From NCBI GenBank assembly GCA_041644975.1, contig JBAZQX010000005.1, positions 13,068 through 77,067 of the forward strand: a DNA stretch of 64,000 bases, given 5' to 3'. The translations under genes were made by a program, and so were the position numbers. Positions 1,657 through 58,523 of this stretch are shown here, piece by piece. Every line of letters begins with the position of its first letter. Within the stretch, counting starts at the first letter, position 1. The stretch is from Candidatus Doudnabacteria bacterium. GTDB taxonomy: Bacteria; Patescibacteriota; JAQUNI01. The notes beneath the pieces are model-generated. The model worked only from the letters and a program-made list of their open reading frames with translations. It made no database searches and had not been told where the DNA came from.

Positions 1657-2451
1657 CTACGGGGCATACAAACTTAAATTAATAGAATTAATACAATAAA
1701 CGGAGACCAAAAATACTACTTCTATTGTTTCAATAATTGCGCCGTAGGTGTCTCCAGTCATTCCGCTTATCTTTCTATTTATCCATCTACCTAACAAAAT
1801 TAGGACCATAAATACCCCTAACCAAATCACAATTCCCTTTAATTGAAGTAATAAACCTATTAAAATAGCCATAAAGAGAGTAGCCCCAATTAACTCTTTT
1901 TCCCCTACTAATTTAGCAAATGGTTCTCCAATGCCCTTTCCTTTTCTCGCATAAGGATAGATTTTAGCAAGATAGACAACGCCCCACCTTGAAAGAGCTG
2001 GCATCAAAATTAAAACTGGATAACGAACAGCGGGTTGCATCTCATTTAAAAAAGAGAATTTTAGTGACAACAGACAAATAACTGCCAATATACCAAAAGA
2101 TCCTATTTTACTATCTCGCATAATCTCTAATATTCTATTTTTATTCTGGCCAGAGAAGAGACCATCTATTGAATCCATAAAGCCATCTAGATGTAAAGCG
2201 CCGGTAACTATTATTAAGATAATCAATATAAACAGATTAACAATTGCATCAGGAAAAAGAGGTCCGAAGATGAAATCAACCGCTACCAGCAGCAACCCAA
2301 TTAATGCTCCCACCAATGGAAAATAGCTGACGGATTTTGCCAGTTCTTTATCTTGAATCTCCCAGTCTTTACCAACAGGAAGAATAGTCAAAAATTTAAG
2401 GGCAACTAAAAAAGATTTCACCCCATTAGAAATTTTGCTTTTTTGAAACAT
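1657..2451 (-). CDS. cobS: adenosylcobinamide-GDP ribazoletransferase (cobalamin synthase)
   Basis: Polytopic membrane protein with the CobS signature ALHLDGFMDSIDGLFS. Confidence 0.85.
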   Translation of the reverse strand: MFQKSKISNGVKSFLVALKFLTILPVGKDWEIQDKELAKSVSYFPLVGALIGLLLVAVDFIFGPLFPDAIVNLFILIILIIVTGALHLDGFMDSIDGLFSGQNKNRILEIMRDSKIGSFGILAVICLLSLKFSFLNEMQPAVRYPVLILMPALSRWGVVYLAKIYPYARKGKGIGEPFAKLVGEKELIGATLFMAILIGLLLQLKGIVIWLGVFMVLILLGRWINRKISGMTGDTYGAIIETIEVVFLVSVYCINSINLSLYAP

Positions 2452-2497
2452 AGTGATTCAATCTATTGACCCGCTAGAATATAATTTCTAACGGGGT

Positions 2498-3601
2498 TCA
2501 TAATTTTTTAGAAACCGAGGCTTCTTCAAAGGTAGCCATCTCATTTAATATTTTAGTCGCCGCTTCAATAATACCTATCCCCAAGGCCGCACCAGTGCCC
2601 TCACCAAGTCGCAGTTCAAGATCAAATAGGGGTTCAAGTCCCATTTTGTCTAAAATGATTTTATGGCCTCTTTCAACTGAACAGTGGGCGGCAAATAAGT
2701 AATCTTTAACTTGAGGCGCCAAACTGTAAGCTATCAAGCCAGCAGCCCCAACAATAAAACCATCAAGGACTACCGGGAGTTGATGGGCTGCCCCAGCCAA
2801 AATTACCCCAACAAGTCCCCCTATTTCAAAACCGCCAACTTTCGCTAAAGTATCTATAAGGTCTCTTGGGTTAGGTTGATTGATCTCCAGGGCTTGTCTA
2901 ATTACCTCTATTTTGTGCTCAAGTATAGCATCATCAATACCCGTGCCACGGCCAGTGACTTCTCTTACATCGGTGCCAGTGATAGCGGCTGTAATAGCGC
3001 TTGAAGAAGTAGTATTACCTATTCCCATATCGCCTGTGCCAATTATATCTACTCCTCGAGAGAGTTCATCTTCAACCAGCTCCATTCCTGTTTTAATCGA
3101 TTGAATTGCCTGTTCATAACTCATAGCCGGGCCCCTTGCTATATTCTTAGTTCCATAAGCCACCTTTTTATTAACTATTTCTGGGCGGGGTTCTAAATCT
3201 GTGGCCACTCCCATATCTACCACAATAATCCGAGCTCCAACATGCCTGGCTAAAACATTAATACCTGCTCCGCCTCCCGCGAAGTTATAAACCATCTGGG
3301 CAGTTACTTCCACTGGATAAGCGCTCACTCCTTCAGCTACTACTCCATGATCTCCGGCCAGGATAAATATAACCTTTTGTTTAATCACCGGGGTAAGATG
3401 ACCTTTTATCCCTGAAATTCTCTCAGCTATTTCCTCGATTCTTCCTAGGCTACCAAGCGGTTTGGTCAGATTATCTAATCTTTCCCGGGCCTTCTTCATT
3501 ACCTCTTTATTTATTGGTTTAATTTTTGAGATTGTTTCTTTGATACTTCGACACGGCTCAGTATCAACCCTGAGCTTGTCGAATAGGTTGATTCTTTCCA
3601 T
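2498..3601 (-). CDS. cobT: nicotinate-nucleotide--dimethylbenzimidazole phosphoribosyltransferase
   Basis: CobT-like motifs AGDHGV, GIGNTT and DGFIVGAAG; about 350 aa. Overlaps cobU by 38 nt. Confidence 0.85.
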   Translation of the reverse strand: MERINLFDKLRVDTEPCRSIKETISKIKPINKEVMKKARERLDNLTKPLGSLGRIEEIAERISGIKGHLTPVIKQKVIFILAGDHGVVAEGVSAYPVEVTAQMVYNFAGGGAGINVLARHVGARIIVVDMGVATDLEPRPEIVNKKVAYGTKNIARGPAMSYEQAIQSIKTGMELVEDELSRGVDIIGTGDMGIGNTTSSSAITAAITGTDVREVTGRGTGIDDAILEHKIEVIRQALEINQPNPRDLIDTLAKVGGFEIGGLVGVILAGAAHQLPVVLDGFIVGAAGLIAYSLAPQVKDYLFAAHCSVERGHKIILDKMGLEPLFDLELRLGEGTGAALGIGIIEAATKILNEMATFEEASVSKKL

Positions 3602-4109
3602 ATTGTTTTATATTAATCGGGATACCAGCAAACATTACATAAAATTCATCCGATGCCTCAGCAAACATCTGATTTGTCCTACCTAAAACATCGCGATAGT
3701 CTCTGCCGAGTTTAGTTTCTGGGTGAAGACCACACCCCACCTCATTAGAAACTAAAATAACATCGGACTCTGACTCCTTAATAGCCTTAATTATCTTTTT
3801 AATATGATCTAAAATCTGGGTTTCCGGTAAATCCATTAAATAAGAGGTATAAATAGTTAGGCAATCCATCAGAATGACTCCGTTCTTCTCTTGTCTAATC
3901 TTTTTATCTAAATTACTCTTAACTTCTATGGTTTTCCACTCCTTAGGTCTAGTATTTTTATGAATTTTAATTCTTCTCCTCATATCCGAATCCATAGGCG
4001 TAGCAGTAGCTATAAAGGTAACTTTTTTACCTGATTTTTGAGCCAATTCAAGGGCAAAACTACTTTTTCCGGCTCTCACTCCACCTAAAATAAAGATCAG
4101 TTTTCCCAT
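3564..4109 (-). CDS. cobU: bifunctional adenosylcobinamide kinase / adenosylcobinamide-phosphate guanylyltransferase
   Basis: P-loop GGVRAGKSSFA, about 180 aa, typical CobU/CobP size and motifs. Confidence 0.85.
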   Translation of the reverse strand: MGKLIFILGGVRAGKSSFALELAQKSGKKVTFIATATPMDSDMRRRIKIHKNTRPKEWKTIEVKSNLDKKIRQEKNGVILMDCLTIYTSYLMDLPETQILDHIKKIIKAIKESESDVILVSNEVGCGLHPETKLGRDYRDVLGRTNQMFAEASDEFYVMFAGIPINIKQYGKNQPIRQAQG

Positions 4110-4140
4110 AAAGCTTGCCCGACAGTAGAGCTCTGCTCTA

Positions 4141-4734
4141 CTATAGGGTATGATTAATTAAAGAAATTATACTCATGTTCTTATAGATTTCTATTATATT
4201 TATGGCTCCTATATCTTGTTTAATTTGCCACAAATAAGAAGAAGGCAAGTTTAAAAGACTGCAAATTATAATCCTATTTACGCCAGCATGAGAAACAATC
4301 ACCACCGTTCCTTCTTCTTTGGTTAAAATTTGCTCCAATACCTTATTTACCCTGTTTTTGAATTTCCGGAAAGATTCTCCTCCGGGAATTTTTGTATTCA
4401 GAGGATCTAAAAGATATTTTTGCGCTAGATTAGGATATTTTTTTTGAATCTGGTAAAATGTCTTTTCTTTCCAACTGCCAAAATCAAACTCATTAAACCC
4501 TTCCTCTTTCCTGATCTTTAAGCAATACGGTTTAGCAATAACAGTGGCCGTTTGATAAGCCCGTTTTAAACCACTTGAATAAATGGTGGAAATACTTTTA
4601 TTTTTTAAGTAGCCAGAAATGCGTTCGGCTTGTTCCCAACCTTTTCGGTTTAGGGCGACATCAGTCACTCCTAAATATCTTTGTTGCCTGCTCCCTTCAA
4701 CTGCCGTATGTCTTATTAAAATTAACTCAATCAT
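4141..4734 (-). CDS. cobC: histidine phosphatase family protein, probable alpha-ribazole-5'-phosphate phosphatase
   Basis: The N-terminal LIRHTA is an RHG-type phosphohistidine motif. The operon context with cobU/T/S supports a CobC role. Confidence 0.6.
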   Translation of the reverse strand: MIELILIRHTAVEGSRQQRYLGVTDVALNRKGWEQAERISGYLKNKSISTIYSSGLKRAYQTATVIAKPYCLKIRKEEGFNEFDFGSWKEKTFYQIQKKYPNLAQKYLLDPLNTKIPGGESFRKFKNRVNKVLEQILTKEEGTVVIVSHAGVNRIIICSLLNLPSSYLWQIKQDIGAINIIEIYKNMSIISLINHTL

Positions 4735-7684: not shown

Positions 7685-7715
7685 GTAGAGACGTTATATT
7701 ACAACGTCTCTATAC
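7685..7715. repeat. palindromic repeat family 1 variant (GTAGAGACG-loop-CGTCTCTAC)
   Basis: Hairpin gtagagacgttatattacaacgtctctatac immediately after the CYTH stop. Confidence 0.8.
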
Positions 7716-8457: not shown

Positions 8458-8475
8458 ACTTACACATCTAATCTT

Positions 8476-9186
8476 ATGACCATCAAAAAGAAAACCTGGC
8501 CAGCGTATTTTGAAAAAGTCGCGAGCGGCAAAAAGAAATTTGATTTGCGCTTAGCGGATTTCAAAATCAAAGAAGGTGATATTTTAATCTTGGAAGAATG
8601 GGATCCTAAAACTCAAAAATACACCGGGCGCAAGATTAAAACGCGCGCGACCTATGTCTTGAAAACAAAAGACTTGCCTTTCCATTCAAAAGCAGAAATC
8701 AAAAAATACGGTCTGCAGGTAATTCAAATTGAACTTACTAAAACGCAAAATCTTGCGTCTTCACATCATTATTTCCCCCGCGGCGTAGAAATAGTCAATG
8801 TCGCGATTATCAAAAATAAAAAAGGTGAAATCCTGATTGCCCGCTCGCCCAAATGGTCAAACAAATGGACTCTCCCCGGCGGCCATTTGGAGCCCGACGA
8901 AAATCTCTTAGCTAGCGCGCAAAGAGAGGCGGAAGAAGAAACAGGTCTCAAAGTAAAACCAGTTAAGATCATTGATTTCAATGAGCTTATTAACTCTCCA
9001 GATTTTCACCGTCCCAGCCACTTTGTTTATTATGATTGTCTCTTTGAATTTGTCAGGGGCAAACTGAAATTAGAAAAACACGAATTATCTGAAGCCAAGT
9101 GGGTGCTGCCAGAAAAGGCGTTAAAACTTGACTTAGCTGACGGCTGTCGCAAAAGTATTCAGAATTATCTAAAATTAAAGATATAG
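8476..9186 (+). CDS. ASCH-like (DUF3850) domain fused to NUDIX hydrolase
   Basis: N-terminal WPAYFEKVASGKKKFDLRLADF...GDILIL (DUF3850/ASCH). C-terminal Nudix box GGHLEPDENLLASAQREAEEETGL. Confidence 0.7.
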   Translation: MTIKKKTWPAYFEKVASGKKKFDLRLADFKIKEGDILILEEWDPKTQKYTGRKIKTRATYVLKTKDLPFHSKAEIKKYGLQVIQIELTKTQNLASSHHYFPRGVEIVNVAIIKNKKGEILIARSPKWSNKWTLPGGHLEPDENLLASAQREAEEETGLKVKPVKIIDFNELINSPDFHRPSHFVYYDCLFEFVRGKLKLEKHELSEAKWVLPEKALKLDLADGCRKSIQNYLKLKI

Positions 9187-9293: not shown

Positions 9294-9319
9294 GTAGAGA
9301 CGTAAAATTTTGCGTCTCT
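9294..9319. repeat. palindromic repeat family 1 variant
   Basis: gtagagacgtaaaattttgcgtctct. Confidence 0.75.
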
Positions 9320-9389
9320 GGAAATAAAAGACCTCAAGTGAGAAGTTAAGTCGTCCTACAAAAATTTAATCAAGCAAAACAATCTCAAA

Positions 9390-9731
9390 ATGGCAAAAAA
9401 ATTATACGTCGGTGGTTTGTCCTACAATACCACTGAGGAAACCTTGAAGGATTTCTTTTCTCAAGCAGGCGCGGTAGAATCAGCGATGATTATCACAGAC
9501 AAAATGTCTGGCCGCTCCAAGGGATTCGGATTCGTGGAAATGGTAAGCGACGAAGACGCGCAGAAAGCGGTTGAAACTTTAAATGGCCAAGAGTTGGACG
9601 GACGCAGCCTAAGAATAGATGAAGCAAGACCAATGAGCGATCGGCCTCGGAGAAGCGGCGGCGGCTTTGGTGGTGGACGCGGAGACGACAGAGGCGGATA
9701 TGGCGGCGGCAACAGAGACCGTGGTTGGTAA
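9390..9731 (+). CDS. RRM-domain RNA-binding protein with RGG/glycine-rich tail
   Basis: RNP-1 KGFGFVEM and RNP-2 LYVGGL. C-terminal GGGFGGGRGDDRGGYGGG. Confidence 0.85.
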   Translation: MAKKLYVGGLSYNTTEETLKDFFSQAGAVESAMIITDKMSGRSKGFGFVEMVSDEDAQKAVETLNGQELDGRSLRIDEARPMSDRPRRSGGGFGGGRGDDRGGYGGGNRDRGW

Positions 9732-9754
9732 TCTATTAGAACTTCAATAAGATA

Positions 9755-9790
9755 AAAAATCTTGTCCCTCGCGAGGGACAAGATTTTTGT
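9755..9790 (+). terminator. rho-independent terminator
   Basis: aaaaatcttgtccctcgcgagggacaagattttt. Perfect GC stem plus T-run. Confidence 0.75.
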
Positions 9791-9812
9791 TACTCCTTCC
9801 CTTTTAATTTTT

Positions 9813-12797
9813 TTATTTATTGCTTAATTTGGCGAATAAAAAAAATAAAGTAATAAACAGCAAGCCCATTAGAAACGGCGCTGATGATGAAATTAAATTC
9901 CGCTTGCCGGGCTTGAATCTTTTCAGTAAAAGAGAATTAGACACAACCGAAACCGAACTCAAAGCCATTGCCAGCCCGGCTAACTCCGGCTTTAAAATGA
10001 GTCCCGCCCAGGCCAACATTCGAGCCGCGATAGGAATACCAACAATATTATAAAACAAGGCGAAAAACATATTCTGCTTGATTTTAGACACTGTCGCGCG
10101 GCTTAAATCAATGGCTGTCAAAACACTTCTCAAATCGTTTTTAACAATAACAATACCGCCGGTTTCCATTGCCACATCAGCGCCCGAACCCATTGCCACG
10201 CCCAAATCCGCCTGCGCTAAGGCCGGAGCGTCATTGATGCCGTCGCCCACAAAAGCGACAGAACGCTTGCGCGGAGAATTTTTAATTTTTTCTCTGTAAT
10301 CTTCAATTCGTTTCCAATCCGTGATTTTTAATGACGACACCTTAACTCCTTTTTGCAAAAGTTCAACAACTATAGCCTTGTGTTGCGGCAAAACTTCGGC
10401 TAAAACATTTTTAATACCCGCTTGCTTGGCTATTGCCTCGGCGGTTCGGCGATTATCACCGGTAATCATAAAGGTTATTAAACCGCGCTTATGCAAGGCG
10501 CTCACCGTGTCTACGGCGCTTTCTTTAATAATGTCCGCCACTGCCACAATACCTAAAATTTCTTTGTCCGTTGACAAAATCATCGTTGTTTTTCCCTGCT
10601 CCTCCAAGCGCCGCGCTTTTCGTTCAATATTTTCCACATTTAACCCGACAACATCGGCCATTAGTTTGCGATTGCCAAAATAATATTTTTGCCCATCAAT
10701 TTCGCCTTCAACACCGTGTCCGGGAATAGCTCTAAAACCAGCCACCTCTTTTATAAGCGCGGATTCTTCTTGCGCGTATTTAACTATAGCTTCAGCCAAT
10801 GGATGCTCGGACATTTTTTCTAAACTGGCGGCTATGCCGAGCGCTTCATCTTCATCGCCAAACCCGATGCCAATTATATCAGTCACTTGGGGTTTGCCCT
10901 GAGTTAAAGTGCCAGTTTTATCAAAAACAATCATCTTTATTTTGCAGGCAGCTTCCAGCGGCTCGCCCCCTTTAATTAAAATCCCTTGCTCCGCTCCCTT
11001 ACCAGTCCCAACCATAATAGCGGTTGGAGTGGCTAATCCCAAGGCGCACGGGCAAGCGATCACAATCACAGCGGTAAAAGCCATCAAAGCAAAAGCCAAG
11101 TTTGAACCAAGCAGAAAAAACCAAACAAGAAAAGTCAAAACAGCGATACCAAGCACAATCGGCACAAAGCGACTGGAAATTTTATCCGCAAACATCTGAA
11201 TAGGCGCTTTGGAACCCTGGGCGTCTTCAATAAACCGGATAATTTGAGCTAAAGCGGTTTCTTTACCCACCCTGGTCGCTCTAAATTCAAAACTGCCGTG
11301 TTTATTCATAGTAGCGCCAATAACAACATCTCCGACATTTTTTTCCACTGGTATGCTTTCCCCGGTAAGCATTGATTCGTCCACTGAAGAATTGCCCTTG
11401 ACAATTTCGCCGTCAACCGGTATTTTTTCGCCAGGCCGAACCAACACTATGTCTCCCTTTACCACCTGCTCAATCGGAATATCTTCCTGCTTGCCGTCAC
11501 GAAAAACGCGGGCGGTTTTTGGCTGAAGGCCCATTAGTTTTTTAATGGCTTCAGAAGTTTTTCCCTTGGCTTTGGCTTCAAGCCATTTGCCCAAAAGCAC
11601 AAATGAAATTAGAAAAGCCGCTGTTTCAAAATATAAATCAGGTATTTTTTCCCCCATCAAACCAATTAAACTGCCCTTAGAAAAAACATAGCTAAGATAA
11701 GCGAACAAACTGTAAAAAAACGCCGCACTTGTACCAATGGCAATCAAACTGTCCATATTGAATGTTTTCATCCGCAAACTACTCCACGTTCCCTTGTAAA
11801 ACCCGAAACCAATAATGAATTGCACAGGTAAAGTCAAAAGCAAAGAAATAATGCCGATGTATGGCATAACCGCCTTGCCCGGCAAGAAAGGCAAAAATTC
11901 CAGAAGCATAAAATAAAACATCGGCAAGCTCAAGCCGAGTCCCCACAAAAACTTCTTCCAATAATTTTTTATTTCTTTAACTCTTCTTATTTTCTCCGCT
12001 TCAGGGTGGTCTGAACGGTATAGTTCCGCTCTATAACCCGCTTTTTTGACAACATCTAACAAAGCGGCTAAATTAGTCAGCGAACTGTCATAAATTACAC
12101 GCGCTCTGGCTGAAGCAAAATTGACATTGGCTGAAATAATCCCCGGCGCTTTCCGCAGGGCCTTTTCTATCAAGCCGGCGCAAGAAGAACAATGCATACC
12201 ATCTATACTTAATTGCGCTTGTTCTTCCTTTTTCTTAGCCGACAATGGAGGTGAAGCAACCGAAACCGCCTGGCTAGGATATAAAACCAAATCAGCGGCA
12301 TCTTGCTCCGAAGGGCCAAGCAAACGAAAAAGTTTGCCTATGTTGACGGAGCGCAAAAGATTATCCGCCAACTGCTCTATGTTTTTTTGGCCCTGTGGAA
12401 CTTCAATTTCTCCTCTGCGCTGGCGCTTGATTTTGCCTTGAAAATTCGGCTGATTGCCGCTATGACCAAAATTACCTTCTGCTTCCGTAGAGGACTCAAG
12501 CCGAATCTTCAAAGGCGAATTGCTGTCAATCTTTTTTTTTAGCCAAATTGAAGTTGATGATTCTCGCTGGATTTCTTTTGGCTCACGGCCTGTTATTTCC
12601 GCTTCGTAGCCGGCCTTCTTAACCGCCTCTATCAGTAAAGCGTCAGAAACATTTTCATCCGCTTTTACCTCTCCTTTACCCAAAGCGTAATCCACTTTGG
12701 CATATTTCACGCCAGTCAAAGAAGACAGTTCAGCCTCTACGAGTTTTTTGCAAGAAGCGCAATGCATGCCATGAATTTTCAGAATAATTTTTTGCAT
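9813..12797 (-). CDS. copA: copper-translocating P1B-type ATPase with two N-terminal HMA domains
   Basis: Two GMHCxSC metal-binding motifs. CPC in TM6, [15 protein letters not shown]. Confidence 0.9.
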
Positions 12798-19836: not shown

Positions 19837-21150
19837 CTAGAAACGGTAACAAAGCTTATCAATTAAAGCCTTTGTCCCGCCAGTTGAAAAAAGAGCTACT
19901 GCTTGGTGAGCAGGATTACGTTTCGTTGCCAATCTTCCATAAAGAGGAGCTAAAAAACTTTTCTCGTGTAAACCTCTCTTGACTAACCCTTCTGCGGCTA
20001 AATCCAGAAGTTTAGACAGGTATGGAACAACCGATCTGCCATCTATCTTAGCGTCAAAGCCGGAAAAGATGGCGTTTTCTCTTAATGCCCGCCAGTCCTG
20101 CCAGGAAAACTGACCAACAATCTCTCGTTCTACCTCATCAATCACTTCTGCGATACCAAGCGTAAAAGCATCTACTGCTATGTTTTCTTGCTGGGGCTGA
20201 GTACAACAAGGACGCACCTCTATGGTGCCATAAAGTGTGCGCGGCCGTGCGCAAGGCCAGAAAGTGCCTTCGTGTAAACGATAATGCTTCTCAAAAGAAC
20301 CTAAACCACCATTGTTAGATAGGTATTGCCCAAAATTTACTCCAGGGGCAAAATATTCACCTTTTCCATCTTGACTAACTAATAGTGTAAGGTTGCAGAC
20401 GTATGCCAGAAAGTGGATTATGTCTCGAAACCGTTCATACGGAACACCCACTCTACCGCCGTTAGAAAAACTCCAATGGTCCTCCCTCACTGCTAGTCGA
20501 CCCTTCTCATCAATACCCCCTGACCAAACAGACGAATTAGCACACAAAATAATCATTAACCCAGCTAAAGCATTATATACATTCGTAAACTGGACAACCT
20601 CCGCCTGCGTAATATCAACGTGAGTTTGATGAGCCGCGGTTATCGTTACATTATTAATACTTTCTGGATAATTTGTGCGCACGACTTCGTGCCGCCTTTT
20701 CTTAACCCAATAAAGATCACTAGGAGCAGCACAAGGTTGAATGCCATAACCGAGCACCAGCCCACCATGCCTATAAATGACTTTGCAAATATAGCGCATG
20801 CAATCATTAAAGGCTCCTACTACCTTCCATAAATCTGGGAGAGGAGGAAGGCCAATTTCTAAAGTACAATAACCTGCATCGGTCGTAATATTTACGCCGT
20901 CTTTCTCAACCCCCAAGACCACATCAGAATAACAATCATCATAATAAGGCTTCCATCCTCCTTGGACTAAAACAGGGAAAATACTCCGCACATCAAAAGG
21001 TTGACCGTCTTGATCAATAACCGGAAACTCGCGCTCCACACCAATCCATCTTCCTCCTCGCTTCAGTTCCACAGGGAATTTGCTAAGATAATTTTCCGCT
21101 AAAAAATTTAAATCCAACATTCTTATCTCTCCTTTTTTTAAAATGTTCAT
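19837..21150 (-). CDS. carboxylate-amine ligase, glutamate-cysteine ligase family 2 (GCS2/YbdK-like)
   Basis: GVEREFPV start and overall GCS2 pattern; about 437 aa. Confidence 0.65.
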   Translation of the reverse strand: MNILKKGEIRMLDLNFLAENYLSKFPVELKRGGRWIGVEREFPVIDQDGQPFDVRSIFPVLVQGGWKPYYDDCYSDVVLGVEKDGVNITTDAGYCTLEIGLPPLPDLWKVVGAFNDCMRYICKVIYRHGGLVLGYGIQPCAAPSDLYWVKKRRHEVVRTNYPESINNVTITAAHQTHVDITQAEVVQFTNVYNALAGLMIILCANSSVWSGGIDEKGRLAVREDHWSFSNGGRVGVPYERFRDIIHFLAYVCNLTLLVSQDGKGEYFAPGVNFGQYLSNNGGLGSFEKHYRLHEGTFWPCARPRTLYGTIEVRPCCTQPQQENIAVDAFTLGIAEVIDEVEREIVGQFSWQDWRALRENAIFSGFDAKIDGRSVVPYLSKLLDLAAEGLVKRGLHEKSFLAPLYGRLATKRNPAHQAVALFSTGGTKALIDKLCYRF

Positions 21151-21237
21151 TTTACCAAACTAACCTACCGAAACCCTGCAAACATTATCAAATTCAAAGA
21201 ACAAAAAAACCGGCTTAGTTAGCCGGTCTAGTTTCTA

Positions 21238-21268
21238 GTGTAAGACAGGTTTTAAACCTGTCTCTACT
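21238..21268. repeat. palindromic repeat family 1
   Basis: gtgtaagacaggttttaaacctgtctctac. Confidence 0.8.
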
Positions 21269-21405
21269 AAAAATCAGACCGGCGAAAGTCGGTTATAAAA
21301 CCAAAAACCAAAAAAGAAATTATTTTGTGAAATATTATTTTCCATAACTCTTAAGAAGCATTATAACTCACCATAAAATATTGTCAAGGACTTCTTTAAA
21401 TGAAA

Positions 21406-33983: not shown

Positions 33984-34012
33984 GTAGAGACATCAAAATT
34001 TCGTGTCTCTGC
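33984..34012. repeat. palindromic repeat family 1 variant
   Basis: gtagagacatcaaaatttcgtgtctctgc. Confidence 0.75.
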
Positions 34013-36478: not shown

Positions 36479-36634
36479 AAATAGAGATCAAATTTAAAAG
36501 TATCTTCTCTGTTGACCTGATCAATTTCTTGAGATGTAAATTTTATTTCTTTTTCTGGCATAAATTTTGAAAATTGCGGTAGGGAACAAAAATTTTCGTT
36601 CCCTGCCATTTTAACACAAAAAAAATTTACCGTC

Positions 36635-55443: not shown

Positions 55444-58400
55444 TTGTCAACGAGAAAAATGACAAAAATTGAATATTGGACTGGCGTGCCGCAAACGGCT
55501 AAACCTTATGTCATCGCCACCTCCCCCCTTACGCGAAAAGGGGCTGTTTTGCTATGCACTAAAAATCCGAAAACTTGGCTTACCCAAATCCAATTTTGGC
55601 AAAAAAATCTAAATGCGGTAGAGGCAGGTTTAAAACCTGTCTCCGCAATCCTGGAATCAAACGCTGATGTTTTAATAAAAAATTATCCAGTCTTCTCCCG
55701 CCTCAAGGATAAAGAACCGATGTTGGTTTTAGCGCAAACGGAAATCCTCGCTCAAAAATTTCCCTCGCCAAAAGAATTAGAATCCAAAAGCTTGCGGCTG
55801 ACAGCAGGACAGACTCTCAACTTGCCCAAACTGATCGGTTTTCTTTTATCCGCCCATTACCAAAAAGAAAGAGCTGCTCATTCTCCAGGCGCCTTTGCCA
55901 AGCGCGGAGGGATTATTGATATTTTTCCTCTTTTGAAAGACCATCTCATTCGCTTAGAATTATTTGGCAATAAACTGGAAAGCATAAAGATTATCAATAA
56001 CAATAAAATAATTGAACAACCGAACAATGTTACCATCCCGCCTTTAAAAGTCGCGAATCCAACGGGTACTATTTTAGACTGGCTGCCATCTCTTGTTACC
56101 ATCATTCTGGACGAACCCGAACCCGAATCAAAAGAAAGGCTGAAAAAATTTCCTTTGATTGTTTTTGAAGCCTTCCCTTGCGCAGGGCCCGAAAATGTAG
56201 TCCGATTCAGCTTTCAAAATCCTCCCCTAGCCTTGGGTAATCTTCAAACATTAAACAACACTCTCCAACAATTCAGAAAAAAAAAGTATCAAATCTTTAT
56301 CGCCAGCAAGAAATTGCCTGCTATAGAGACAGGTTTTGAACCTGTCTCCGCAATGATAACCCCTTTCTCACTTTCCGCCGGTTTCCAAAATCAAAAAGCA
56401 AAAATTATTGTCTTCACGGATACGGAAATCTTCGGTTTCCGCAAGCAAAAGCGCCGCGAACGTCGTTTTCAAATGGACGCTGAACCTCTGAACGCCCTCA
56501 CGCCCGGAATGTATATCGTGCATATTGACCACGGTATCGGCAGGTTTGCTGGAATGGTTCAAAAAGAGATTGACCACCTCGTAAGAGAATATTTTTGCTT
56601 AGAATACGCTTATAGCGATAAGCTTTTTCTGCCTATTGATCAGGCGGATAAAATCACGCGCTATATTGGGCGGGAAAATCCCGTCATCCACCGCTTGCAT
56701 GGCGGCATTTGGTACCAAATCAAAAAACAAGTTCAGGTTGACGCTAAAAAAATAGCCGCGGAACTTTTAAAAATTCAAGCATCACGCCAAACTGAAAAAG
56801 GGTTTATTTTTACGCCTGACACTCCCCGCCAAAGCACGCTGGAAGCGTCCTTCCCCTACTCCGAGACGCAAGACCAGGAGAAAGCAATTTGCGAGGTAAA
56901 GGCTGATATGGAAAGCGCTCGCCCGATGGACCGTTTAATCTGCGGCGATGTGGGTTTCGGCAAAACCGAAGTCGCCATCCGCGCCGCCTTTAAGGCGTGT
57001 GAAAATAAAAAGCAGGTCGCGCTCCTCGCGCCCACCACCATCCTCGCCCAGCAACACTTTGATACTTTTAAAGAAAGATTGCAATCATTGAATGTGAGGA
57101 TTGGTCTCCTGTCGCGCTTCCAATCCAAAAAGCGCCAAAAACAAACCTTAAAAGATTTAAAACGAGGAAAAATAGACATTGTTATCGGCACCCATCGTCT
57201 CCTCTCTCGCGATGTTTATTTTTTTAATCTAGGTTTGATTATTATTGATGAGGAACAACGTTTTGGCGTGCGCCATAAGGAAAAATTAAAATCGTTGCGA
57301 CCTAACCTTGATATTCTCACCCTTTCCGCGACGCCTATCCCGCGCACCCTGAACTTTACTCTTTCTGGCCTCCGCGATATAAGCAGTATTCAAACCGCGC
57401 CCGCCGGCCGCAAAGCAATCAAGACCTATGTGCATATTGCCGAAAACAAACTCATCCGGAAAGCGATTCGCCGAGAGCTTGAAAGAGAAGGACAAGTGTA
57501 TTATCTTTATAATAAAGTGGAGACGATTCTGCCTTTCGCGAAAAAAATCCAAAAACTTGTTCCCGAAGCCAAAATCGACGTCGCCCACGGTCAGATGAAT
57601 GAACGCGATTTAACCCGCGTAATGCGCCAATTTGATGAAGGAAAAATCCAAATTCTGATCGCCACCACCATTATTGAAAACGGGTTGGACCTCCCGAACG
57701 TGAATACGCTCATTGTGGATAATGCGCCGCAATTCGGCCTCTCCCAGCTCTATCAAATCCGCGGCCGCATTGGCCGAGGAATACGCCAAGCTTACGCCTA
57801 TTTTTTCTATCACCAAGAAAAGCTTCCAGCAGCCGCGAGCAAAAGATTAGAGGCGCTCCTTTCCATGCAGGAACTCGGCTCGGGATTTAACATCGCGATG
57901 CGCGATCTGGAAATCCGAGGATCGGGCAATATCTTGGGTCGTGAACAATCAGGAGATGTCAATTCTATTGGATTATATTTGTACACCAAGCTTCTCGCCC
58001 AAGCAATTCAAGAATTCAAAACCGGCAAGGTTCCTGAACCAATTTTGGAAGTCTCTATTGATCTTCCTCTTCCGGCGCGTTTACCTCAACCTTTCATTCC
58101 CGCCGAGAAAAAACGGCTTTCCCTTTACCACCAACTAAGCGGCATTAATACTTTTGCCGATCTTCGCTGTATCAAACATAAAATTGAAAAAACGTATGGT
58201 CCCTTACCAAAGGAAGTTAGAAACCTCTTCAAGATTCTGAAAATAAAAATTCTCGCCCGTGCCGCAAGAATAAAAGCTATTGATACAATCAAGGTTTGGG
58301 GAATTGATGGCAAGTCCAGACAACGAATAATCTTAGACTTTGCAGAAAAAATGGATTGGGATAAAGTAGACGAACTTTTAAAACATAATCCACATTGGAT

Positions 58401-58497
58401 CATTGGCGAAAATAAAATAAAGATTGATTTTGAGGATTTAGGGGAAAAATGGGTTTGCGAATTAAAAGAGAGTTTAAAAATATTAAAAAGGCAGTAG
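55444..58497 (+). CDS. mfd: transcription-repair coupling factor
   Basis: Helicase motifs GDVGFGKTEVAIRAAF, DEEQRFG, SATPIPRT and QxxGRxGR. C-terminal TRCF domain. Contains two in-frame palindromic-repeat copies. Confidence 0.9.
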   Translation: MSTRKMTKIEYWTGVPQTAKPYVIATSPLTRKGAVLLCTKNPKTWLTQIQFWQKNLNAVEAGLKPVSAILESNADVLIKNYPVFSRLKDKEPMLVLAQTEILAQKFPSPKELESKSLRLTAGQTLNLPKLIGFLLSAHYQKERAAHSPGAFAKRGGIIDIFPLLKDHLIRLELFGNKLESIKIINNNKIIEQPNNVTIPPLKVANPTGTILDWLPSLVTIILDEPEPESKERLKKFPLIVFEAFPCAGPENVVRFSFQNPPLALGNLQTLNNTLQQFRKKKYQIFIASKKLPAIETGFEPVSAMITPFSLSAGFQNQKAKIIVFTDTEIFGFRKQKRRERRFQMDAEPLNALTPGMYIVHIDHGIGRFAGMVQKEIDHLVREYFCLEYAYSDKLFLPIDQADKITRYIGRENPVIHRLHGGIWYQIKKQVQVDAKKIAAELLKIQASRQTEKGFIFTPDTPRQSTLEASFPYSETQDQEKAICEVKADMESARPMDRLICGDVGFGKTEVAIRAAFKACENKKQVALLAPTTILAQQHFDTFKERLQSLNVRIGLLSRFQSKKRQKQTLKDLKRGKIDIVIGTHRLLSRDVYFFNLGLIIIDEEQRFGVRHKEKLKSLRPNLDILTLSATPIPRTLNFTLSGLRDISSIQTAPAGRKAIKTYVHIAENKLIRKAIRRELEREGQVYYLYNKVETILPFAKKIQKLVPEAKIDVAHGQMNERDLTRVMRQFDEGKIQILIATTIIENGLDLPNVNTLIVDNAPQFGLSQLYQIRGRIGRGIRQAYAYFFYHQEKLPAAASKRLEALLSMQELGSGFNIAMRDLEIRGSGNILGREQSGDVNSIGLYLYTKLLAQAIQEFKTGKVPEPILEVSIDLPLPARLPQPFIPAEKKRLSLYHQLSGINTFADLRCIKHKIEKTYGPLPKEVRNLFKILKIKILARAARIKAIDTIKVWGIDGKSRQRIILDFAEKMDWDKVDELLKHNPHWIIGENKIKIDFEDLGEKWVCELKESLKILKRQ
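55618..55646. repeat. palindromic repeat family 1 copy inside mfd CDS, in frame (encodes VEAGLKPVSA)
   Basis: gtagaggcaggtttaaaacctgtctccgc. Confidence 0.8.
56322..56351. repeat. palindromic repeat family 1 copy inside mfd CDS, in frame (encodes IETGFEPVSA)
   Basis: tatagagacaggttttgaacctgtctccgc. Confidence 0.8.
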
Positions 58498-58523
58498 AAA
58501 CAGGTTTAAAAATCTGTCTCTAC
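58494..58523. repeat. palindromic repeat family 1 overlapping the mfd stop codon
   Basis: gtagaaacaggtttaaaaatctgtctctac. The TAG of the repeat is the mfd stop. Confidence 0.8.

Follow-up and report, generated by a model that had tools for sequence, protein, structure and literature searches.

In-frame palindromes of the GTAG double-foot type in the mfd gene of a Patescibacteria genome, and a RayT gene found intact, disrupted or deleted at one locus of this genome and its relatives

GTAG-tagged repetitive extragenic palindromes (REPs) have been described as short stem-loops which lie mostly just downstream of open reading frames (ORFs) and are associated with the REP-associated tyrosine transposases (RAYTs, hereafter RayTs); their GTAG ends donate TAG stop codons, and in-frame copies occur within genes, notably those for DNA repair, sometimes with two copies per gene as in uvrA and uvrB (Di Nocera 2013, PMC3733652). 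The same study treats the Rickettsia palindromic elements (RPEs) RPE-4 and RPE-6 as CGTC-tagged REPs without an associated transposase and RPE-1 as a longer insertion; its main text does not contain the term mfd, and the phyla that it lists with GTAG or CGTC repeats do not include the candidate phyla radiation (CPR). A further type, the 'double-foot' REPs with GT[AG]G at the 5' end and C[TC]AC at the 3' end, goes with subclass 2.4 of TnpA_REP, which abounds among Cyanobacteria and Bacteroidetes and scattered elsewhere, and REPs have been reported in frame inside tnpA_REP itself; the main text of that study contains neither 'Parcubacteria' nor 'candidate phyla' (Quentin 2018, PMC6006769). Here we analyze a 64-kb stretch (the window) of a Patescibacteria (CPR) contig, of which 81.6 kb were examined in total, and describe a family of GTAG-tagged palindromes in it, two copies of which lie in frame within mfd, the gene for the transcription-repair coupling factor. 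We consider it highly probable that these are double-foot GTAG REPs which entered two tolerant loops of Mfd in ancient insertions, have been inherited vertically while slowly decaying, and are now probably fossils.

The palindrome GTAGAGACAGGTTTnAAACCTGTCTCTAC occurs at positions 55618 and 56323 of the window, and both copies begin on a codon boundary of mfd, at offsets of 159 and 864 nt from the ATG. As the initial annotation had proposed, they add ten residues each (VEAGLKPVSA and IETGFEPVSA) and leave the frame intact, and all eight coordinates that it had given for the repeat family carry the sequence described. A 27-nt pattern, with up to three mismatches allowed, matches four loci in the window (9186, 21241, 55618 and 56323) and nothing in 100 shuffled versions of it, no copies being expected by chance. 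A degenerate copy begins at 58494, and three variants (7685, 9294 and 33984) keep the base GTAGAGAC...GTCTCT beneath a hairpin top which differs in sequence and is itself palindromic. A census of GTAG-plus-hairpin sites counted eight in the window, whereas 30 Markov shuffles gave 1.5 on average; GTAG hairpins number nine in all in the 64 kb, dispersed and multi-copy, with two adjoining stop codons. The predicted hairpin energies of all copies range from -12 to -19 kcal/mol (z-scores -4.3 to -6.2). The 5' end of every window copy is GTAG, except for ATAG once and GTGT once; the 58494 copy terminates in CTAC, the 21241 copy has an intact GTAG on one strand, and the CTAC ends of the remaining copies have decayed. 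One base is shared between the 9186 copy and the stop codon that ends the NUDIX gene upstream, and the 7685 copy lies within the longest possible methyltransferase ORF, yet upstream of a later ATG-ATG. Searches of the whole window with Rfam (gathering thresholds) and a tRNA scan gave no matches. CRISPR repeats, attC sites and head-to-head type IIS restriction sites (GAGAC/GTCTC) were also considered and dropped, the copies being single, dispersed and GTAG/CTAC-ended.

A scan of one genome per bacterial species with the core AGACAGGTTTnnAACCTGTCT recovered at least 116 loci, in Planctomycetota/Brocadiaceae (anammox bacteria), Leptospiraceae, Desulfatiglandales, Nitrospirota, Ignavibacteria, Bacteroidota, Gammaproteobacteria, Goldiibacteriota and several CPR groups. 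Among the 112 matches listed, from which the ends were counted, GTAG and CTAC are both present in 64, at least one of the two in 104, and GTAG on the left in 90; beyond these ends the sequence is unrelated between the loci, apart from a weak A/T preference. As the GTAG/CTAC ends recur and the flanks are unrelated, the unit is a 29-nt perfect palindrome, GTAG-AGACAGGTTT-n-AAACCTGTCT-CTAC, that is, GTAGAGACAGGTTT-n-AAACCTGTCTCTAC. By the features of their sequence, the window repeats are best classified as GTAG-tagged 'double-foot' REPs of the RayT/TnpA_REP system. The likeness to RPEs that had originally been drawn holds insofar as a palindromic family has colonized coding sequence in frame; identity with the RPEs is rejected, as the ends are GTAG/CTAC and the CGTC tag is absent.

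The three frames of the palindrome read VETG(L/F)KPVS, a TAG-containing sequence and RDRFxTCLY. The loci listed hold 129 copies, 18 of which are inside long ORFs, and 17 of these 18 are read in the VETGLKPVS frame. The likely independent intragenic events favor this frame by about 12 to 1, for which a rough binomial estimate gives p ~0.007 relative to open frames alone, and a bias beyond the open-frame expectation suggests that the Gly/Pro-containing peptide is the better tolerated reading. Because one frame contains TAG and nearly all intragenic copies share the same frame, it is less remarkable that both mfd copies do so as well. In unrelated genomes VETG[LF]KPVST is found in frame within UvrA (Planctomycetota; L064, position 5883), Fmt (Patescibacteria; L010, 5309), NadC (L016, 1148), AroA (L070, 3657), PheT (L114, 3804) and GvpL/F (L106, 4246). 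The UvrA of L064, in which the element corresponds to a loop insertion of ~8 residues relative to a solved UvrA, is a second nucleotide-excision-repair host, and the recurrence of such hosts (mfd here, uvrA in L064, uvrA and uvrB in the literature) could conceivably reflect an insertion bias beyond mere tolerance.

When the ORFs within 400 nt of the element were clustered across phyla, the largest cluster was found to consist of a ~180-200 aa protein with the Pfam domain Y1_Tnp. These Y1_Tnp genes also contain the element itself, which is read in frame as VETGLKPVST and falls in the loop behind the HuH motif; we observed such an internal REP in the RayTs of L049, L099, L111, L033 and L129. Among the best 120 homologues, recovered by a search seeded with shared 5-mers and hence biased towards carriers of the peptide, 104 have E[TA]G[LFY]KP[VA]S in this loop, many of them as two to four tandem or partial copies; several of the 120 bear the annotation RayT or originate from Patescibacteria, Parcubacteria, Falkowbacteria or Peribacteria. 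An exhaustive HMMER search with a CPR RayT whose peptide is divergent, which avoids the 5-mer bias, returned 429 cluster representatives at E <= 1e-30, whose loops contain G+C-dependent variants (VGAGFKPAPT, VGDGFKPSPT, VGNGLKPFPT) or readings of such hairpins in other frames. RayT homologues with REP-encoded peptides in this loop come from many phyla (proteins P0121-P0385). In L024 the internal copy has kept its hairpin via compensatory changes (GAGACGCCTTTAAAAGGCGTCTC), and the RayT genes of both L024 and L049 are flanked by REP copies. That the repeats of the window are ordinary intrinsic terminators, or regulatory hairpins which arose de novo with no dispersed family behind them, is very improbable in this light: several copies are indeed placed at gene 3' ends, and a few scan matches without GTAG/CTAC (L008, L021, L078 and L112) are terminator-like hairpins of an A-run and a T-run, but a T-run follows the stem at none of the eight window copies, the very same 29-mer, GTAG/CTAC ends included, is found again in many phyla and within RayT genes, and two copies lie inside an essential-length ORF.

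The history of the family was traced through relatives compared at two places, namely mfd, with L006 (Mfd 89% identical) and L001 (Mfd 78% identical), and the region at 7.1-9.4 kb of the window, with L127 (a Patescibacteria metagenome-assembled genome (MAG), NUDIX protein 89% identical) and L129 (NUDIX 84% identical); we pair L129/L001 as a sister lineage with an intact RayT and L127/L006 as the lineage with a RayT pseudogene. In the window this region is made up of a CYTH gene, a REP, a methyltransferase gene, a NUDIX gene, two further REPs and the gene for an RRM protein. L129 has an intact 178-aa RayT (9460-9996) directly upstream of NUDIX, with the motifs PNHVHGI and YDHIIRN, a Pfam Y1_Tnp match of 28.1 bits (cut-off 23) and, as its best NCBIfam match, REP_Tyr_transpos at 62 bits, below the 80-bit cut-off; this gene contains a perfect internal 29-mer, and another perfect copy stands after the NUDIX stop, 720 nt downstream. 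In L127 a RayT pseudogene (9409-9993) directly precedes the NUDIX orthologue, an in-frame stop having replaced a conserved Trp, and its internal REP is of the GTTGCAATGCAAC subfamily, read as RRDVAMQRLY. The RayTs of L127 and L129 are only ~50% identical, though the neighboring genes are 84-89% identical to those of the window. At the corresponding window junction RayT is absent, with just 18 nt between the methyltransferase and NUDIX genes, and no Y1 transposase was found elsewhere in the window or in the 81.6 kb of contig. RayT is hence found intact, as a pseudogene and deleted at one and the same syntenic locus. As the cognate RayT is missing from the locus that it occupies in sister genomes, the window copies are probably fossils rather than active elements, and the family would now be immobile in this genome. 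The copies at 7685, 9186, 9294 and 21241 are each common to one or both of L127 and L129, the 9186 copy being ancestral, which points to a family that is old in the clade.

The third copy associated with mfd, at 58494, bears on whether the family is still active. The TAG stop of mfd (58495-58497) is the TAG within the GTAG of this copy; the repeat, whose closed frame contains TAG, thus donates the stop codon, as other GTAG REPs do (PMC3733652). A family that is still mobile, with a RayT encoded outside the 81.6 kb examined and with the 58494 copy as a recent insertion, appears unlikely to us. RayT homologues are common in CPR genomes, only ~82 kb of this genome was examined, and the 58494 copy is not present at the mfd 3' end of L006 or L001; but that copy is itself degenerate, and the 3' flanks of mfd are rearranged in both relatives, where loss is as possible as gain, the two being indistinguishable. 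RayT, moreover, is missing at the syntenic locus of the window and a pseudogene in the 89% relative, and the copies at 9186, 7685, 9294 and 21241 are shared with relatives. A wider scenario, which we regard as improbable, would make the mfd copies fossils of a REP-RayT unit moving between phyla with the REP inside the transposase ORF, where it serves as a master that gives rise to the genomic copies and keeps them uniform. It would explain the identical 29-mer from Planctomycetota to CPR, the perfect internal copies despite RayT proteins that are only 40-60% identical, and the occurrence of near-consensus copies in L129/L001 and of more decayed ones in L127/L006 and the window.

The host protein contains all the expected modules of an Mfd, namely the UvrB-homology module, the RNA-polymerase-interaction domain (RID), the superfamily-2 translocase and the TRCF C-terminal domain (Pfam UvrB_inter, CarD_TRCF_RID, DEAD, Helicase_C and TRCF, all above cut-off), and matches E. 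coli Mfd structures with an E-value of 1.5e-185. In an AlphaFold2 model (mean pLDDT 74, 20 sequences, pTM 0.41) both sites are loops with dips in confidence: residues 54-63 (site 1) lie in coil between a helix at 37-50 and a strand at 62-65, the 10-residue block having a pLDDT of 56, and residues 289-298 (site 2), ~50 residues ahead of the RID, form coil with a block pLDDT of 63-66, whereas the blocks neighboring both sites reach 85-89; DSSP assigns coil to residues 51-61 and 289-298. The copies are at orthologous positions in L006 and L001, each with lineage-specific substitutions, so that three lineages or more share the insertions, the most distant of them at 78% Mfd identity. In Mfd orthologues of 65% identity or less the motif is absent, with a gap opposite site 2 and, opposite site 1, unrelated sequence that varies in length. 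The loop insertions predicted from the sequence are therefore specific to a lineage in that more distant and unrelated Mfd proteins lack these residues, but they are not private to the genome studied. At site 1 of the P0006 Mfd (L131; 63-65% identical), ~60 codons into the gene, we found ATCGAAACC..AAACCTGAC (IETKPD), which looks like a decayed REP copy minus GGTTTG; on account of this remnant the insertion at site 1 may predate the 78% clade. That the palindromy is a coincidence of coding sequence for conserved Mfd residues is extremely improbable. Such a reading has in its favor only that the reading frame is open, and is contradicted by the lack of expected chance matches in shuffles, by the absence of the residues from orthologues of 65% identity or less and from solved Mfd structures, and by the identical DNA found in intergenic regions and in unrelated genes.

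With respect to the architecture of the host, we also noted that the window Mfd is short (1012 aa): its HMMER alignment begins at residue 307 against residue 432 of E. coli, and residue 317 aligns with residue 290 of the 978-aa chain 6m6a_M at the start of that alignment. On the basis of these alignment starts, the counterpart of E. coli domain D3 seems to be reduced or absent. REP site 2 lies in the remainder of the D3-region linker.

Identity inside the elements (0.73-0.93) is slightly above that of their gene surroundings (0.73-0.86; first 1000 alignment columns, the N-terminal part). In both the window and L006, the two copies end in CCGCA in place of the consensus CTACA (window 55641-55647 and 56346-56352; L006 1434-1440 and 2139-2145), i.e. 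identical substitutions are seen at two sites 700 nt apart; L001 keeps CTACA. At site 1 the CCGC tail pairs with an upstream GCGG, and an extra outer stem, UGCGG/CCGCA, lengthens the hairpin. It is conceivable that the hairpins have been selected for a role in mfd mRNA or DNA, such as a processing, pausing or stability signal or a protein-binding site, and REPs elsewhere have been reported to act as RNA elements (PMC3733652). Both hairpins have stayed stable after divergence, with a G-U pair and the extra outer stem at site 1, and the same CTAC-to-CCGC change has occurred in both copies of two lineages. Yet the identity of the elements is barely above that of the surrounding gene, site 2 of L006 has gained changes that break pairs, and the orthologues of 65% identity or less function without the hairpins, and we accordingly judge selection of this kind to be quite improbable.

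Old insertions that the protein tolerates are the most likely explanation of the mfd copies. We propose that two REP copies landed in mfd in the ancestor of the Patescibacteria clade to which the window belongs, site 1 within the N-terminal UvrB-homology module and site 2 in the linker ahead of the RID. To judge from the family to which it belongs, the hairpin would have been mobilized as single-stranded DNA by a RayT-type enzyme, and RayT would thus have carried out the insertions. The copies would have survived through the combination of an always-open frame (V-E-T-G-L/F-K-P-V-S-T) with a position in surface loops, and would subsequently have been passed on vertically with slow decay, presumably as neutral decorations of Mfd.

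Several points weigh against this proposal. Simple independent decay predicts something other than a CCGC tail shared by both copies in the window and L006, a pattern that could have come about through gene conversion between the two copies or through selection acting on the hairpin, and both mfd hairpins are still strong (-16 and -18.6 kcal/mol), which is compatible with such selection. No clean empty site was recovered for any window copy, and as both mfd regions and the UvrA site of L064 are variable loops, the size of the inserted unit is unreadable from protein alignments; 29 nt cannot be divided by three, and a unit of this length alone would shift the frame, so that something must make the insertion up to a multiple of three. 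Both the involvement of RayT and the fossil status of the copies are limited by a tblastn search of the window and the 81.6 kb of contig with RayT proteins, in which only the REP-encoded peptide was matched. To our knowledge, transposition of REPs by RayT has not been demonstrated in vivo. Finally, the structure model of Mfd is shallow, at 20 sequences and a pTM of 0.41.

The features discussed here are collected in Table 1.

Table 1. REP copies, their host gene and related sites in the window
Feature	Position in window	Strand	Evidence and conservation
mfd (transcription-repair coupling factor), 1012 aa, hosts two in-frame REPs	55459..58497	+	Pfam; E. coli Mfd structure match
REP copy 1 in mfd, GTAGAGGCAGGTTTAAAACCTGTCTCCGCA, VEAGLKPVSA (aa 54-63)	55618..55647	+	hairpin -18.6 kcal/mol; orthologous in L006 and L001
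REP copy 2 in mfd, ATAGAGACAGGTTTTGAACCTGTCTCCGCA, IETGFEPVSA (aa 289-298)	56323..56352	+	hairpin -16.0 kcal/mol; orthologous in L006 and L001
Degenerate REP copy GTAGAAACAGGTTTAAAAATCTGTCTCTAC	58494..58523		GTAG gives mfd TAG stop; not at mfd 3' end of L006 or L001
Canonical REP copy GTAGAGACAGGTTTTAAACCTGTCTCTAA, adjoins NUDIX stop codon	9186..9214		perfect orthologous copy in L129; half-deleted in L127
Canonical REP copy (GTAGAGACAGGTTTAAAACCTGTCTTACA on - strand), conserved leader upstream of GCS2-family gene	21241..21269		conserved in L127
REP variant GTAGAGACGTTATATTACAACGTCTCTAT, between CYTH and methyltransferase genes	7685..7713		orthologous copy in L127
REP variant GTAGAGACGTAAAATTTTGCGTCTCTGG, upstream of RRM-protein gene	9294..9321		orthologous copy in L127; unrelated hairpin there in L129
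REP variant GTAGAGACATCAAAATTTCGTGTCTCTGC, intergenic	33984..34012		sequence, hairpin
GTAG-tagged hairpin of another sequence type, GTAGGGAACAAAAATTTTCGTTCCCTGC, intergenic	36579..36606		census; not in initial annotation
Methyltransferase/NUDIX junction, 18 nt, RayT position in sister genomes	8458..8475		synteny with L129 and L127

Two of the sites in Table 1 have surroundings of separate interest. The hairpin at 36579 separates a Pif1-like helicase gene from its neighbor, and may belong to a further REP subfamily of this genome. The 240 nt upstream of the GCS2-family gene (window 21150-21390, - strand; L127 19001-19270) are ~95% identical between the two genomes, above the value for coding DNA, and include a perfect (12/12) match to a sigma-70 promoter, TTGACA-16-TATAAT, at 21387-21360. 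Three hairpins follow in this leader, the middle one being the REP at 21241, which thus sits between the promoter match and the terminator-like, T-run-bearing stem that closes the leader (21229-21207). The region resembles a leader/attenuator, or else a small RNA of ~140 nt; its matches in Rfam are sub-threshold only (Trp_leader, E 0.009).

Elsewhere on the contig we found a reverse-transcriptase gene (weak RVT_1 match, ~420 aa), which is followed by two large ORFs without a Pfam match (568 and 411 aa) in an order conserved between the window contig (L123 14100-19230, beyond the window start) and the Patescibacteria MAG (L127 890-5907); this arrangement could be a retron, a diversity-generating retroelement (DGR) or a defence-type reverse-transcriptase module. 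Just beyond parAB, past the end of the window, are a LAGLIDADG-like ORF and a transposase pair of an rve-family insertion sequence (IS) (L125 14383-16934). Matches to CobU, CobS, a DBI_PRT phosphoribosyltransferase and a histidine phosphatase occur at 1657-4734 of the window (L123 6800-9877), and genes for a periplasmic-binding/FecCD/ABC transporter come next, shortly past the start of the window (L123 10813-13857). Together these genes resemble a cobalamin-salvage set, which is unexpected in a Patescibacteria genome.

Each of the main features described here has published precedent, namely GTAG REPs, in-frame REPs concentrated in repair genes, double insertions in one gene, donated TAG stops, REPtron loss, double-foot REPs and the occurrence of REPs in tnpA_REP; in particular, the REP inside the RayT ORF was already published by Quentin 2018 (PMC6006769) and hence is not new. 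Novel here are mfd as the host gene, Patescibacteria as the host group and the series of three RayT stages at a single syntenic locus. A literature search pairing REP or RAYT with Patescibacteria or CPR returned no such report among its top matches, and a full-text search with the peptide and the DNA consensus gave unrelated primer matches only. REPs and RayT in three states are documented here in small Patescibacteria genomes, and mfd joins the DNA-repair genes with in-frame REPs. The two positions at which Mfd tolerates ~10 extra residues could aid protein engineering, and VETG[LF]KPVS[TA] can be used in annotation as a signature of REP-derived coding sequence, not as a conserved protein motif.

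Among the known systems, the window element resembles the GTAG REPs (PMC3733652) in being a short stem-loop (29 nt, within their 20-40 bp) with a GTAG end, a donated TAG stop and in-frame copies in a repair gene; it differs from them in that GTAG is mirrored by CTAC and the whole 29-mer is palindromic, as well as in its AT-rich stems, its mfd host and its occurrence in a CPR genome. With the double-foot REPs (PMC6006769) it shares the GTAG/CTAC ends and the presence of a REP inside RayT (L129, L111, L099, L049 and ~100 database homologues), and it is by these features that we liken the two. Like the E. coli REPs, which occur with RayT and in bacterial interspersed mosaic elements (BIMEs), it combines GTAG with a hairpin, as the substrates of a Y1 HUH enzyme do, and REPs can persist after loss of the RayT gene (PMC3479197, PMC8266576), which here is missing at least from the syntenic locus; the E. 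coli REPs, however, are GC-rich, imperfect and bulged, have a tag at one end only, and mostly occur as pairs in BIMEs, whereas the window copies are single, symmetrical and AT-rich. As with the RPEs, palindromes are found in frame in housekeeping genes, where they add a short peptide without destroying the protein, and the comparison is still a fair one, given that RPE-4 and RPE-6 count as REPs in the scheme of Di Nocera 2013; in contrast to the CGTC tag and the lack of a transposase in the RPEs, the window element is a GTAG-tagged, RayT-associated palindrome of 29 nt.

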